Positions 578-14,233 of a stretch of DNA of 14,982 nucleotides are shown piece by piece. The DNA comes from a virus. Lineage: Duplodnaviria; Heunggongvirae; Uroviricota; Caudoviricetes. The stretch lies in the IMG/VR virus record IMGVR_UViG_2547132281_000001. The stretch is one strand, 5' to 3'. Numbering within the stretch: the stretch's first letter is position 1; each line of letters begins with the position of its first letter. The notes beneath the pieces were generated by a model. It worked only from the letters and a program-made list of their open reading frames with translations. It made no database searches and was not told where the DNA came from. Position numbers and translations under genes: made by a program.

Positions 578-635
578 AAAAAGGGCGGCAGAGCAGTCAC
601 GGAGTAAAACTGATACCGCCAAACGTCACCAGAAA
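578..635 (-). ncRNA. dicF: DicF small RNA (ftsZ/manX-targeting sRNA of the dicB operon)
   Basis: Reverse complement of 578..635 reads TTTCTGGTGACGTTTGGCGGTATCAGTTTTACTCCGTGACTGCTCTGCCGCCCTTTTT, which matches the DicF sequence as I remember it, including the 3' GC stem and U-run. Positioned between ydfC and dicB as in Qin. Confidence 0.85.
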
Positions 636-2874: not shown

Positions 2875-3820
2875 ACGCCCACTGGTTATAAACACGCAGC
2901 TGGCAATGAAAATTGGCTTAAACGAAGCCATTGTTTTGCAACAACTGCACTACTGGTTGAGAGATACCAACTCCGGCATGGAATGTGATGGTGTTCGCTG
3001 GATTTATAACACAACGGAACAATGGCTGGAACAGTTCCCATTCTGGTCAGAGTCAACGTTAAAGCGCGCGTTTGCAAGTCTGAAAACGCTGGGGCTTTTG
3101 CGTTGTGAAAAGCTCAATAAATCAAAGCGCGATATGACCAATTTCTACACGATCAACTACGGGAGCGAGCTTTTAGATGGTGGCAAATTGAGCGAATCCA
3201 TCGGTTTAAAATGCGCCGCTCCATCAGGTCAAAATGACACGATGGAAGAGGTCAAAATGAAACGCTCCATTGGTTCAAAACGACTCAATGTCATCGGGTC
3301 AAAATGGCCTGATGATCTTACAGAGAATACAACAGAGATTACTACAGAGAATAAAAAGACTTCTCGTCCGGAAGCTTCGCAACCGGACCCGCAGACGGTT
3401 GAACAGGATTTTTTAACCCGACACCCTGACGCGGTTGTGTTCAGTGCGAAAAAACGCCAGTGGGGCAGCCAGGAAGATTTGGCGTGTGCGCAGTGGATCT
3501 GGGGGCGAATCGTGAGTCTTTACGAGCAGGCCGCCAGCGATGATGGCGAGATTTCGCGACCGAAAGAACCCAACTGGACCGCATGGGCCAACGACGTGCG
3601 CACAATGCGGATGCTGGATGGCAGAACTCACAGACAAATTTGTGAAATGTTTGGTCGGGTGCAGCGGGATCCATTCTGGGTAAAAAATATCATGAGTCCG
3701 TCAAAGCTTCGCGAAAAATGGGATGAACTGGTTATCCGCCTGGGGCGTTCGTCTGTACAGCGTTGTGTGAATCATATTTCTGAGCCGGATACCGAAATTC
3801 CGCCGGGCTTCAGGGGGTAA
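2855..3820 (+). CDS. Phage replication initiation protein: replisome-organizer-like N-terminus with DnaT-like (primosomal protein I) C-terminus
   Basis: ATG at 2855 preferred over the track's TTG at 2801 (the 2801 start would overlap the preceding ORF by 74 nt). C-terminus ...NHISEPDTEIPPGFRG closely resembles the recalled E. coli DnaT C-terminus ...SEPDSQIPPGFRG. Sits in the lambdoid O/P slot. Confidence 0.7.
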   Translation: MSLLFAERPLVINTQLAMKIGLNEAIVLQQLHYWLRDTNSGMECDGVRWIYNTTEQWLEQFPFWSESTLKRAFASLKTLGLLRCEKLNKSKRDMTNFYTINYGSELLDGGKLSESIGLKCAAPSGQNDTMEEVKMKRSIGSKRLNVIGSKWPDDLTENTTEITTENKKTSRPEASQPDPQTVEQDFLTRHPDAVVFSAKKRQWGSQEDLACAQWIWGRIVSLYEQAASDDGEISRPKEPNWTAWANDVRTMRMLDGRTHRQICEMFGRVQRDPFWVKNIMSPSKLREKWDELVIRLGRSSVQRCVNHISEPDTEIPPGFRG

Positions 3821-3860
3821 GTGTTAATTTCTGGTCATGAGGTAATTTTCAGGAGGGCTT

Positions 3861-4283
3861 GTGGCAAAAGTTTTTACACAAGAAGAGCGGGAAAAAATTA
3901 AAGGGCAGGTTGTTGAACTCGTACGCCTGAGTGGGCGCGAGACGTTACGACAACTGGAAACTAAAACTGGGGCAACAAGATATCTGATGAGCGTTCTGGC
4001 CAGAGAGCTGGTTGCCAGTGGCGATGTATACAACTCTGGTTACGGGTTATTCCCGTCTGAACAGGCGCGTAAGGACTGGCAAAATGCCCGTAAAAAGCTC
4101 TCAAGGGCAAAGCCGAAGAAACCATCTGCGGTTGATCCGGACCTTATCTGGTCATTACCAGACGGAGAAATACGCCGCTACGACAGGCGCCTGAATATAA
4201 TCTGTCGCGAGTGCCGGAAGAGCGAAGCTATGCAGCGTGTACTGGCTTTCTATCAGGGTAATTTTCAGGAGGCGGTACTGTGA
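3861..4283 (+). CDS. Hypothetical protein (140 aa), GTG start
   Basis: SD AGGAGG at 3851-3856 then GTG at 3861. Basic C-terminal half with a CRECRK motif. Function not recognised. Confidence 0.55.
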   Translation: MAKVFTQEEREKIKGQVVELVRLSGRETLRQLETKTGATRYLMSVLARELVASGDVYNSGYGLFPSEQARKDWQNARKKLSRAKPKKPSAVDPDLIWSLPDGEIRRYDRRLNIICRECRKSEAMQRVLAFYQGNFQEAVL

Positions 4284-4928: not shown

Positions 4929-4943
4929 GGTAATGACTCCAAC

Positions 4944-5447
4944 TTATTGATAGTGTTTTATGTTCAGATAATGCCCGATGACTTTGTCATGCAGCTCCAC
5001 CGATTTTGAGAACGACAGCGACTTCCGTCCCAGCCGTGCCAGGTGCTGCCTCAGATTCAGGTTATGCCGCTCAATTCGCTGCGTATATCGCTTGCTGATT
5101 ACGTGCAGCTTTCCCTTCAGGCGGGATTCATACAGCGGCCAGCCATCCGTCATCCATATCACCACGTCAAAGGGTGACAGCAGGCTCATAAGACGCCCCA
5201 GCGTCGCCATCGTGCGTTCACCGAATACGTGCGCAACAACCGTCTTCCGGAGCCTGTCATACGAGTAAAACAGCCAGCGCTGGCGCGATTTAGCCCCGAC
5301 ATAGCCCCACTGTTCGTCCATTTCCGCGCAGACGATGACGTCACTGCCCGGCTGTATGCGCGAGGTTACCGACTGCGGCCTGAGTTTTTTAAGTGACGTA
5401 AAATCGTGTTGAGGCCAACGCCCATAATGCGGGCAGTTGTCCGGCAT
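4944..5447 (-). CDS. insB: IS1 InsB reading frame (transposase C-terminal part, expressed as InsAB' by frameshift)
   Basis: 167-aa track [61 protein letters not shown]... is canonical IS1 InsB. Confidence 0.95.
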
Positions 5448-5641
5448 CCAACGCCATTCATGGCCATATCAATGATTTTCTGGTGCGTACCGGGTTGAGA
5501 AGCGGTGTAAGTGAACTGCAGTTGCCATGTTTTACGGCAGTGAGAGCAGAGATAGCGCTGATGTCCGGCGGTGCTTTTGCCGTTACGCACCCCCCCGTCA
5601 GTAGCTGAACAGGAGGGACAGCTGATAGAAACAGAAGCCAC
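5366..5641 (-). CDS. insA: IS1 InsA (91 aa)
   Basis: Track [94 protein letters not shown] is canonical InsA. Confidence 0.95.
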
Positions 5642-5818
5642 TGGAGCACCTCAAAAACACCATCATACACTAAATCAGTAAGTTGGCAGCATCACCGAAT
5701 ATTTAGACTAAAGAGTTTGTAACGCTATGTAAGTGATTTTTTCTGGTTTAGATATTTATATGTCCGGCCAAATTGAGGTGTGTTTAAATGTAATTGCACA
5801 TTGATTGTAGGAGGAATA

Positions 5819-5998
5819 ATGAAAAACGCATTGCAGTTTTTGTTTGTTGCGTTCTGGTTGTTCGTATCATGTATGCCCATCATCTTCACAGCAAGGTATA
5901 TAGAAAAAGTTGATGTTTTGATATTAATATTTGGATATATAAATGCCCTTTTTTTAGGGGTGTTCATGGCGGTCATGTGCATTGAATACTGGCGGTAA
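5819..5998 (+). CDS. Small hydrophobic protein (59 aa, two predicted TM helices)
   Basis: Strong SD AGGAGG 6 nt before ATG 5819. MKNALQFLFVAFWLFVSCMPIIFTARYIEKVDVLILIFGYINALFLGVFMAVMCIEYWR. Visibly AT-rich context. Confidence 0.5.
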   Translation: MKNALQFLFVAFWLFVSCMPIIFTARYIEKVDVLILIFGYINALFLGVFMAVMCIEYWR

Positions 5999-6256
5999 AT
6001 ACAGCGAACGCCATTGGTTTAGTTGGATATTTACTGTGCCGGACAAAAACGGTTTGCGGGGAAATCTTAGTTAAATAGAATGACTGCGGGTGCTTGAGGC
6101 TATCTGTCTCAGGCATGAACACCAAAAGGCAGATAGAGAAAAGCCCCAGTTAACATTACGCGTCCTGCAAGACGCTTAACATTAATCTGAGGCCATATCT
6201 ATGCGACACATAGAGATTAGCCTCTTACGGACCGAAAGGTCAAGGAGAAGCAGGCT

Positions 6257-6391
6257 ATGAAGCAGCAAAAGGCGATGTTAATCGCCCTGATCGTCATCTG
6301 TTTAACCGTCATAGTGACGGCACTGGTAACGAGGAAAGACCTCTGCGAGGTGGAGGTCGCTGTCTTCACAGCTTACGAACCTGAGGAGTAA
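6257..6391 (+). CDS. hokD: Hok-family membrane toxin, HokD/RelF-like but 44 aa
   Basis: MKQQKAMLIALIVICLTVIVTALVTRKDLCEVEVAVFTAYEPEE. N-terminal 31 and C-terminal 13 residues match recalled HokD. SD AAGGAGAAG upstream. A 19-codon upstream ORF ends in ATGA overlap with the start. Confidence 0.8.
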   Translation: MKQQKAMLIALIVICLTVIVTALVTRKDLCEVEVAVFTAYEPEE

Positions 6392-6461
6392 AAGACCTGG
6401 CGAGGGAGAAATCCCTCGCCACCTCTGATGTGGCAGGCATCCTCAACGCACCCGCACTTAA

Positions 6462-6486
6462 CCCGCTTCGGCGGGTTTTTGTTTTT
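6462..6486 (+). terminator. Rho-independent terminator after hok
   Basis: Hairpin CCCGC-TTCG-GCGGG followed by TTTTTGTTTTT. Preceded by a second hairpin CGAGGGA-GAAA-TCCCTCG around 6400-6418. Confidence 0.6.
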
Positions 6487-9603: not shown

Positions 9604-9679
9604 GGCCCTTTAGCTCAGTGGTGAGAGCGAGCGACTCATAATCGCCAGGTCGCTGGTTCAAATCCAGTACAGCGCGCCA
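9604..9679 (+). tRNA. tRNA-like sequence with CAU anticodon (Ile2/Met type) but non-pairing acceptor stem; possibly degenerate
   Basis: D arm (GCTC/GAGC), anticodon loop CTCATAA, T arm GCTGG-TTCAAAT-CCAGT and encoded 3' GCCA are all present. Acceptor 5' strand GGCCCTT pairs with 3' ACAGCGC at only 3 of 7 positions. Confidence 0.45.
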
Positions 9680-10143: not shown

Positions 10144-10617
10144 ATACATATCTGGATTATCACCTGTTACGGTAAAAAGTTATTGCTTACTGTTTTTGTG
10201 AATGGCATTGCAGCAGCCGGATAATGTCAGTGCTGGCTGACGGTGTGCTGGTGGCGGGTGTGGTGGTTATTGCTTTCCCGTTGCTGAAAAAGAAAACGCC
10301 AGACTGTTAGCCGGGTATCAGTTAGCGGGAGAAATTTTTAAATACTTCACAATTCAGGCGGTTGACTGTTGTCTGGTTTGCGGGGAGTTTGTTAAAAGAA
10401 ACTGGCATGGTGAATCCCCCTGTGCGGAGGGGCAATCAGCGAGTAGGTATATGGGATAATCGCGGATTCAGGTGCTGGTACTGAATTCACCGGGAGGCAC
10501 CCGGCACCATGCACTTCAATAGATTCTCTCCACATTATGGATATTCTTTCAGAATATCCCACGCAGACTTTGTGTAAATGTTAACAAATGTGCGTTTTAT
10601 TTGATCTGATTCGCTGT

Positions 10618-13458: not shown

Positions 13459-13818
13459 ATTAATATTAAATCGGATTATTTTTAGCGCTGAATGTGAAAT
13501 TTAAATAAAAAGGACTCTTCCATGAGTCAAAATCCTTGAAATCTTAAGGGTAAGATAAAAGGTCATTAGACAGAATGACACGTTTTATTAATAAATAAAG
13601 CTATTGTTTCATTCGTGTGTTTTTCTTTACAAAAGTAATCCTTGCTATGGTTGGTTAATCATGCGTTAATGGTGTTCTGGTTTGTTACAAAATTATCTGA
13701 AGCAGTCATTGTTATAATTTTATTATTTGTACCTCTTGAGATTTCCTTGTTGGTTTTTCTCTCTGATATTTTTTTTCGGACCATTCTGCCCAAGGGCTAA
13801 CTTCTTCAAAAGGTAATA

Positions 13819-14034
13819 ATGATGTCTAACAAAATGACTGGTTTAGTGAAATGGTTTAACCCTGAAAAAGGTTTTGGTTTCATCACGCCGAAAGATGGTA
13901 GCAAAGATGTGTTTGTGCATTTCTCAGCTATTCAGAGCAACGATTTCAAAACGTTAACTGAGAATCAGGAAGTCGAATTTGGTATTGAGAACGGACCTAA
14001 AGGCCCTGCAGCTGTTCATGTAGTGACACTTTGA
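13819..14034 (+). CDS. cspI: Cold-shock protein CspA family (CspI-like)
   Basis: [71 protein letters not shown]; RNP motifs KGFGFI and VFVHF present. Preceded by about 360 bp of AT-rich leader. Start could be the second ATG at 13822. Confidence 0.85.
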
Positions 14035-14044
14035 GGTAGAAAAT

Positions 14045-14233
14045 ATTACAAACCATATTCACTTTAGATGCCCGTGTTGCCATGGTTCTCAGTATAGAAC
14101 ATCATCTTTTGATGTTTCTGACAGAAATCCTTTCGGGGCAAAATGTATCTTTTGTAAATCAATGATGATTACATTTGATAATATTTCACAATACTTAAAT
14201 GTTAGCCATCTGTCGTTAGATTTAAGAAAGTGA
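14045..14233 (+). pseudogene. Zinc-ribbon-like small ORF lacking a canonical start codon
   Basis: Open frame ...RCPCCHGSQYRTSSFDVSDRNPFGAKCIFCKSMMITFDNISQYLNVSHLSLDLRK* with CxxC..CxxC. Between the upstream in-frame stop and the motif there is no ATG/GTG/TTG, only ATT at 14045 and 14057. Start coordinate is nominal. Confidence 0.35.

Follow-up and report, generated by a model that had tools for sequence, protein, structure and literature searches.

A 59-residue helical-hairpin protein probably encoded upstream of hok in Qin- and Rac-type prophages of Escherichia coli and Shigella

Introduction

A short AT-rich stretch lies between the end of an IS1 element and a hok/sok locus in the prophage DNA analysed here, and the question it raises is whether the 59-codon open reading frame within it (ORF59) is a gene and, if so, what kind of protein it makes. 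The first-pass annotation, whose interval began at position 5697, directly after the last base of IS1 (5696), had read the ORF as coding for a small membrane protein of two helices, preceded by a strong ribosome-binding site (RBS), and had pointed to toxins, holin-like proteins and modulators of membrane transporters as the classes to consider. In what follows, the window is the whole stretch of DNA that was analysed, 14,982 nucleotides in length.

The reading that we favor, with a probability of roughly 0.6 for the proposal in full, is that ORF59 is a genuine gene, carried by lambdoid prophages of the Qin/Rac type in E. coli and Shigella, and encodes a 59-aa helical-hairpin protein of the inner membrane. 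Its most likely class is an accessory inner-membrane protein acting by intramembrane association, and the main functional rival is a membrane-damaging toxin. To recognise ORF59 is to put right the annotation of a prophage block that is very common, is blank in RefSeq and is called on the wrong strand in phage records; the poorly charted small membrane proteins also gain a conserved two-helix member. ORF59 is an ordinary orphan small prophage membrane protein; nothing points to an unusual mechanism, and no new kind of system is opened on present evidence.

Prophage context and the IS1 junction

The window contained the Qin-type gene set (dicB, dicF, dicA, dicC, hokD, rem, a DUF968 gene, rusA, the Q antiterminator and a lysis cassette) and is a Qin-type lambdoid (cryptic) prophage. 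The gene order in the closest annotated genome was ydfD, dicB, ydfA, dicA, dicC, a ydaT-like gene, replication genes and DUF977, followed by several small hypothetical genes, hokD, rem, DUF968 (ydfU) and rusA, and then by the Q antiterminator, a tRNA, essD, ydfR, rrrQ, rzpQ, cspI and ynfN. The RNA features located in the window were those expected for a Qin-type prophage, and are listed here together with the insertion sequence:

583-634, minus strand: DicF small RNA (Rfam)
4929-5696, minus strand: IS1, 768 bp, with insA/insB on this strand, adjoining the AT-rich module
9605-9676, plus strand: tRNA (Rfam)
10376-10566, plus strand: STnc100 small RNA (Rfam)
13664-14080, plus strand: cspA-type thermoregulator leader, 5' of cspI (Rfam)

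A segment of about 577 bp present in intact prophages (positions 3424-4000 of prophage locus L001) was replaced by IS1 in the window. The left flank of IS1 ended at L001 position 3423 and the right flank resumed at position 4001, and the replaced segment held the 3' end of a DUF7167 gene, a 58-aa gene and a hypothetical gene described as "frameshifted". No 9-bp target-site duplication was found around IS1 in the window, and the arrangement looks like an IS1-mediated adjacent deletion. With IS1 in place and the 577 bp gone, ORF59 in the window is therefore severed from the upstream early operon. The exact junction between IS1 and the module was not found as one contiguous piece at full identity in 5426 complete E. 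coli genomes. An outward promoter can be read at this junction (TTGGCA at 5683-5688, a 15-nt spacer and TAGACT), which is weak and below the threshold of the consensus scan.

ORF59 and its predicted product

The module to the right of IS1 carried the following features:

5702-6036, plus strand: AT-rich module, made up of about 117 bp upstream, ORF59 and about 38 bp downstream, as delimited by local DNA alignment with positions 4878-5217 of L097, a locus of the second lineage described below
5809-5814, plus strand: Shine-Dalgarno sequence AGGAGG, with the 4-nt spacer AATA before the ATG
ATG 5819-5821 to TAA 5996-5998, plus strand: ORF59, the probable 59-aa gene (sequence, hydropathy, AlphaFold2 and homologue comparison)
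5946-5960, plus strand: homopolymer tract CCC TTTTTTT A GGGG in codons 43-48 of ORF59, the site of frameshift variants

The layout read in the first pass was confirmed, namely a 59-aa ORF with AGGAGG and two hydrophobic segments in a block of 35% GC between the IS1 end (5696) and hok/sok (from 6088). The GC content at 5700-6000 was 0.35, against 0.45-0.58 in the sequence on either side. The pattern AGGAGGNNNNATG, in which AGGAGG is combined with the ATG, occurred once in the 15-kb window compared with an expected 0.05 occurrences. Position 5812 was polymorphic among the 33 unique alleles of the lineage to which the window copy belongs (lineage A), with AGGAGG in 25 and AGGGGG in 7. RNA folding over the short range from -49 to +42 revealed no structure hiding the RBS relative to shuffled sequences (z = -0.73 in lineage A and -0.18 in the second lineage, B). 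A consensus scan of lineage A found no promoter-like site for ORF59 on either strand, and no terminator was found between the ORF59 stop codon and the hok promoter and leader.

The predicted product was MKNALQFLFVAFWLFVSCMPIIFTARYIEKVDVLILIFGYINALFLGVFMAVMCIEYWR, 59 aa in length. Its hydropathy profile showed two hydrophobic segments, one at about residues 4-24 and the other at about 33-55, with the loop ARYIEKVD between them, and the GRAVY value was 1.35. AlphaFold2, run with the family alignment, placed helices at residues 2-24 and 31-58 with a mean pLDDT of 72.7. Both predictions agreed with the two-helix membrane protein read in the first pass.

Frameshift variants of ORF59 were clustered at the homopolymer tract. 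One complete genome (L006) carried a 1-bp deletion at 5946 that frameshifts the ORF, and the truncated protein variants P0019, P0021, P0024 and P0025, with up to 24 member sequences each, diverged at the 5946-5960 tract. These frameshifts could be sequencing errors or could mark a real slippage hotspot that truncates helix 2.

A family of two lineages

When 1.84 billion representative proteins were searched exhaustively with HMMER, one further lineage (P0037/P0042), referred to here as lineage B, came up besides near-identical copies. Its protein, from E. coli, was also 59 aa long, was 41% identical to ORF59 (E = 4e-9) and was found in at least 1000 contigs. The two proteins aligned without gaps, shared 19 invariant positions and ended in nearly the same way, with IECWR in lineage B and IEYWR in the window protein. 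The set that defines the family was a length of 59 aa, the invariant residues W13, S17, C18, P20, I21, I22, T24, F38, G39, N42, A43, L44, E56, W58 and R59, and a lambdoid prophage location upstream of hok. The concern that homologues might reveal a fragment of a larger gene was settled by this comparison, since the sole distant homologue had the same 59-aa length, the same start and the same C-terminal motif. In lineage B, an in-frame stop was located six codons upstream of the ATG; the conserved form is therefore the 59-aa protein and not a 72-aa GTG extension. Older GenBank records call the plus-strand ORF as either 59 or 72 aa, "hypothetical protein", and the ORF59 protein is deposited in GenBank and UniProt solely under that name. 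The two lineages form an orphan family of small prophage membrane proteins.

The lineage A block was present in 1568 of the 5426 complete E. coli genomes (about 29%), always at 95% identity or more, and its carriers included CFT073 (NZ_CP051263.1:1346108-1346287), ST131 strains, O104:H4 and ATCC 8739. The lineage B locus was present in about 1044 of the 5426 genomes (about 19% more), at a single chromosomal site between ttcA with an intR fragment on one side and uspF-ompN on the other. This site is the Rac attachment region, and the locus is a decayed prophage remnant, in which the ORF was surrounded by pseudogenes, with pieces left of an integrase, a DUF1627 gene and a metal ABC permease, the last of them frameshifted. 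Within the lineage B locus (L097 3984-6170), the 59-aa ORF was the sole intact reading frame, and PGAP left it without annotation there too.

The searches made placed the family in E. coli and Shigella only. tblastn matched three phage records, all of lineage A, and six plasmid records that are probably chromosomal pieces. No third lineage was recovered by a two-lineage profile search or by a degenerate-pattern scan of metagenome contigs, and a scan of genome contigs with single-protein patterns returned only close copies and one indel-ridden locus. That locus (L015; CP178302.1, "E. coli ECMA0423", a GTDB representative) matched the module at only 87% identity, with numerous indels and a disrupted ORF; errors in the assembly appear a better explanation than a diverged lineage. 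The ORF59 peptide string did not occur in the supplementary files of the small-gene study of O157:H7 Sakai (PMC5597208), and a literature text search gave no match to it.

Predicted topology, expression and functional class

The hairpin would expose only a short loop to the periplasm, with its two ends cytoplasmic. This orientation is preferred because in lineage B R2 and K3 lie at the N-terminus and the loop has no charged residues besides E26 and E30, both acidic; lineage A is ambiguous. ORF59 would be expressed with the early-right operon (dicC, the replication genes and the Q antiterminator), which lies on the same strand. Since lineage A has no recognisable promoter of its own, the protein would mainly be made by read-through when the early operon is on, and since no terminator follows ORF59, the transcript would run into the hok/sok locus. 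As to its action, we conjecture that the protein would work within the membrane through the invariant residues S17, C18, P20 and T24 of helix 1, G39, N42, A43 and L44 of helix 2, and E56, W58 and R59 at the C-terminus. Its binding partner would be a second copy of itself or a different membrane protein, and the gene would count as accessory, outside the core sets for lysis and replication.

The homology search suggested in the first pass succeeded in so far as it uncovered lineage B, and failed to connect ORF59 with any known toxin, holin or defence family. The window protein had no match in Pfam, and the best NCBIfam score was 11.5 bits against a 45-bit cut-off. No match was obtained in PHROGs at E < 0.1, in PADLOC or in a PDB profile search; Foldseek against BFVD returned generic hairpins only (best E = 2), and no homologue was found outside E. 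coli and Shigella. The lineage B protein gave a weak match to the Pfam family DUF4212 (E = 0.07, 13.9 bits, below the gathering cut-off of 30 bits), which comprises the two-helix subunit of solute:sodium symporters. The match appeared to be driven by hydrophobicity and was confined to lineage B, and no symporter gene was adjacent to ORF59.

Several small inner-membrane proteins of E. coli, including AcrZ, MgtS, MgrB and KdpF, act by binding larger membrane proteins. Each has a single helix, a core-genome location and a known partner, and annotation pipelines typically missed proteins of this kind. ORF59 resembled them in size class, in very high hydrophobicity and in having a few conserved polar or helix-packing residues in the span, and differed from them in having two helices, in being prophage-borne and in lacking sequence similarity. 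Like prophage morons, which are accessory genes set among core phage genes, ORF59 had a low GC content (35%, with about 50-58% in the neighbouring genes) and sat between core early genes in a mosaic block with a variable upstream context. The picture for a promoter and a terminator of its own was mixed: in lineage A neither a promoter-like site nor a terminator before hok was found; in lineage B, the sequence TGATATAAT was located about 75 nt upstream of the ATG (L097 4918-4928) and fits the extended -10 promoter consensus, and the counterpart region of lineage A (about 5735-5750 in the window) had no equivalent. By composition and position, ORF59 fits the loose category of moron-like small prophage membrane proteins.

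The main functional rival is that ORF59 encodes a membrane-damaging toxin or lysis-type protein, resembling either a type I toxin or a holin/pinholin, which would oligomerise and depolarise or permeabilise the inner membrane. Type I toxins are small hydrophobic membrane peptides, as is the ORF59 product (59 aa, GRAVY 1.35, two helices), and most of those known have one helix. ORF59 resembled the Hok/Gef toxins in being a small membrane protein of the same mosaic module with an ancestral adjacency to hok, and differed from them in having two helices instead of one and in lacking sequence similarity. The invariant Asn in the middle of helix 2 also favors such a protein, as Asn is a residue type known to drive helix association, and so do the location of this prophage gene beside a known membrane toxin and the recurrence of frameshift variants at the homopolymer tract. 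Against a type I toxin, no overlapping mok-like frame or structured leader was detected at ORF59, the consensus scan, which may miss a weak promoter, found no antisense promoter-like site on the minus strand in or next to ORF59 in lineage A, and no Rfam family matched positions 5697-6087 even at E <= 1. An unguarded toxin with a perfect RBS would be difficult to keep in 29% of genomes. The ORF was intact in 156 of the 158 lineage A loci sampled, and neither PADLOC nor PHROGs gave a hit.

The holin form of this rival fared similarly. Class II holins and pinholins such as S21 are lambdoid phage-encoded proteins of about 60-70 aa with two transmembrane helices, and ORF59 is like them in size, in having two transmembrane helices, in a topology that probably places both ends in the cytoplasm, and in lambdoid origin; it therefore conforms to the pattern of two transmembrane helices within about 60-75 aa. 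It differed from them in having no charged C-terminal tail, with only EYWR after helix 2, and no dual-start motif. Its neighbours were IS1 (or early-region hypothetical genes) and hok, with no endolysin among them, and it belongs to the early region: in the closest annotated genome some 6 kb separate it from essD, rrrQ and rzpQ, which are located beyond the Q antiterminator on the downstream side. All three classes suggested in the first-pass annotation (toxin, holin-like protein and transporter modulator) gained no support and were not refuted, and we regard a membrane-damaging protein as unlikely.

Conservation of the reading frame

The frame of ORF59 has been conserved as coding sequence for a two-helix hairpin that was ancestrally paired with hok. 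This could not be read from the length of the ORF, which was dropped as coding evidence because an ATG-initiated ORF of at least 59 aa arose with P = 0.10-0.14 in dinucleotide shuffles of the 391-bp AT-rich block. The case for a gene rests instead on the comparison of the two lineages. ORF59 was the only one of the six frames that was open in both, and the DNA alignment contained gaps throughout the upstream flank and none inside the ORF. Identity between the lineages was 58%, 73% and 49% at the first, second and third codon positions, respectively (heterogeneity chi-square p = 0.029), and pN was 0.33 against a pS of 0.70, which gives a dN/dS of about 0.2 with dS near saturation. When the 71 differences were placed at random, the frame stayed open in 2.6% of trials (P = 0.026), and an amino acid identity of at least 24/59 was reached in 1.1% (P = 0.011). 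The hydropathy profiles of the two proteins were correlated (r = 0.82), and a purine-rich RBS preceded both, AGGAGG or AGGGGG in lineage A and AGGGA, 6 nt before the ATG, in lineage B. Because only two lineages exist, each of these between-lineage tests is one pairwise comparison, with p values of 0.01-0.03 each. Taken on this evidence, ORF59 is very probably a real, translated gene.

Within lineage A, codon periodicity was detected in the ORF59 frame (chi-square p = 0.013) and was absent in the flanks. The ORF contained 11 SNP sites in 180 bp compared with 37 in 178 bp of flank, a density lower by a factor of about four (p = 4e-5), counts to which one low-quality assembly contributed in all regions; mosaic recombination in the flanks could add to the contrast. 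The 11 sites comprised 10 nonsynonymous changes and 1 synonymous change, a ratio that indicates no short-range purifying selection on the protein, with counts too small to exclude neutrality. A within-lineage dN/dS was rejected as powerless, all copies being at least 95% identical with 11 SNP sites among them. Intactness of the ORF across the sampled loci was likewise uninformative as a coding test, because the copies are at least 95% identical and many loci were recruited by protein match.

These results bear on the possibility that ORF59 is a chance ORF in an AT-rich spacer upstream of the hok promoter, in which a T-rich strand reads as hydrophobic and nothing functional is made. The ORF length (P = 0.14 in the shuffles) and the 10:1 SNP ratio agree with such an origin and count against a genuine gene, as does the restriction of the family to E. 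coli and Shigella; the position of the lineage B copy among pseudogenes also speaks against the genuine-gene proposal. Codons of the form NTN are hydrophobic irrespective of selection, and all 60 RefSeq genomes listed were left blank here by the current NCBI pipeline. A chance ORF would nevertheless have to account for a copy with 40% nucleotide divergence that kept its start, stop and length without a gap, for second codon positions that were the most conserved and third positions the least, for the low frequencies at which random divergence reproduced the open frame and the amino acid identity, and for a canonical RBS at the right distance. A chance origin therefore appears rather improbable, and the reading of ORF59 as a prophage gene is retained.

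Relation to the hok locus

The region downstream of the module carried the hok locus, with the following features:

6053-6081, plus strand: putative hok promoter (TTTGCG, a 17-nt spacer and TAGAAT), read from the sequence just 5' of the RF01794 match; it fails the consensus scan
6088-6259, plus strand: hok mRNA leader and sok region (Rfam RF01794, 106.7 bits, E = 7e-24)
6257-6391, plus strand: hokD-type toxin gene, 44 aa, with a 21-bp in-frame deletion
6460-6477, plus strand: terminator-like hairpin with a T run, the first such site 3' of ORF59 and hok in the terminator scan

Most of the 162 lineage A loci continued into hok, and 82 of the 162 shared a common left boundary of the module about 200 bp upstream of the ATG. 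In lineage B, a 3' fragment of hok with an internal stop was located 55 nt after the ORF stop (L097 5235-5324), and read VTKKDLHQVRI*GGQMEV where HokD has VTRKDLCEVRIRTGQTEV. The deletion that produced it corresponds to about 6037-6324 of the window and removed the hok promoter, the leader and sok region and the first 22 or so codons. As both lineages lie just upstream of hok, the order of ORF59 followed by hok predates the split between A and B. ORF59 offers a candidate, open to experimental test, for an accessory function tied to the hok locus in prophages of the Qin/Rac type.

A closer tie was also considered, in which ORF59 and hok/sok form a functional two-gene module. The hairpin protein would then be a modulator of, or immunity factor for, Hok, affecting its insertion or toxicity, or a second effector. 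Alternatively, read-through would gate Hok translation: when the early operon fires, the ORF59 transcript would enter the hok locus and change the 5' end or the folding of the hok mRNA. If true, a system regarded as purely RNA-controlled would gain a further layer, at the level of protein or of read-through. In favor of such coupling, the adjacency was kept in both lineages despite 59% amino acid divergence, and no terminator was found from the ORF59 stop to the hok promoter and leader. Against this, lineage B retained an intact ORF59 while its hok was a dead fragment, similarity in about 45 of the 162 lineage A loci ended at the hok start codon (window position 6258), hok/sok was present in 4551 genomes compared with 1549 for ORF59, and the adjacency may reflect co-inheritance of a mosaic block. 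No BLASTP alignment was obtained between the ORF59 and Hok proteins. A functional unit of this kind is very unlikely, and ORF59 is better taken as an accessory membrane protein that shares a module with hok.

Two of the loci with a breakpoint at the hok start, in phage PhiR42_1 (L004, 2884-6177) and in ATCC 8739 (L007, 663-1700), had an insertion sequence directly after it. In the phage locus an ISNCY-type transposase followed the breakpoint, and in both loci flxA, ydfV and relB came next. This hints that the relB-relE-hokD arrangement of K-12 arose when an insertion parted the hok leader from the coding region of hok.

The hokD of the window itself encoded 44 aa instead of 51. The 21-bp deletion (point after 6351) lay between two GAGGT repeats and removed RIRTGQT from the periplasmic part, and the leader and sok region was intact. 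This hokD may be an attenuated or inactivated toxin allele.

The opposite strand

The reading of the module in phage records differs from ours, and its basis is the following ORF:

5725-5982, minus strand: 85-aa ORF, "hornerin" or hypothetical protein (phage-record annotation)

This is the ORF annotated in the deposited phage records ON470612, ON470619 and PV340562 (for example at 2907-3158 in both L003 and L004), and the claim that it and not ORF59 is the real gene is almost certainly wrong. No ORF in the block is longer (P of at least 85 aa = 0.013-0.03 in shuffles), yet two stops interrupt its frame in lineage B, lineage A alleles give it lengths of 85, 79, 63, 54 or 31 aa, no RBS precedes its ATG, and it opposes the direction of the operon. 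Its product would be of low complexity and rich in N, K and T, as commonly seen when a shadow ORF faces a genuine gene, and we take the 85-aa ORF to be such a shadow.
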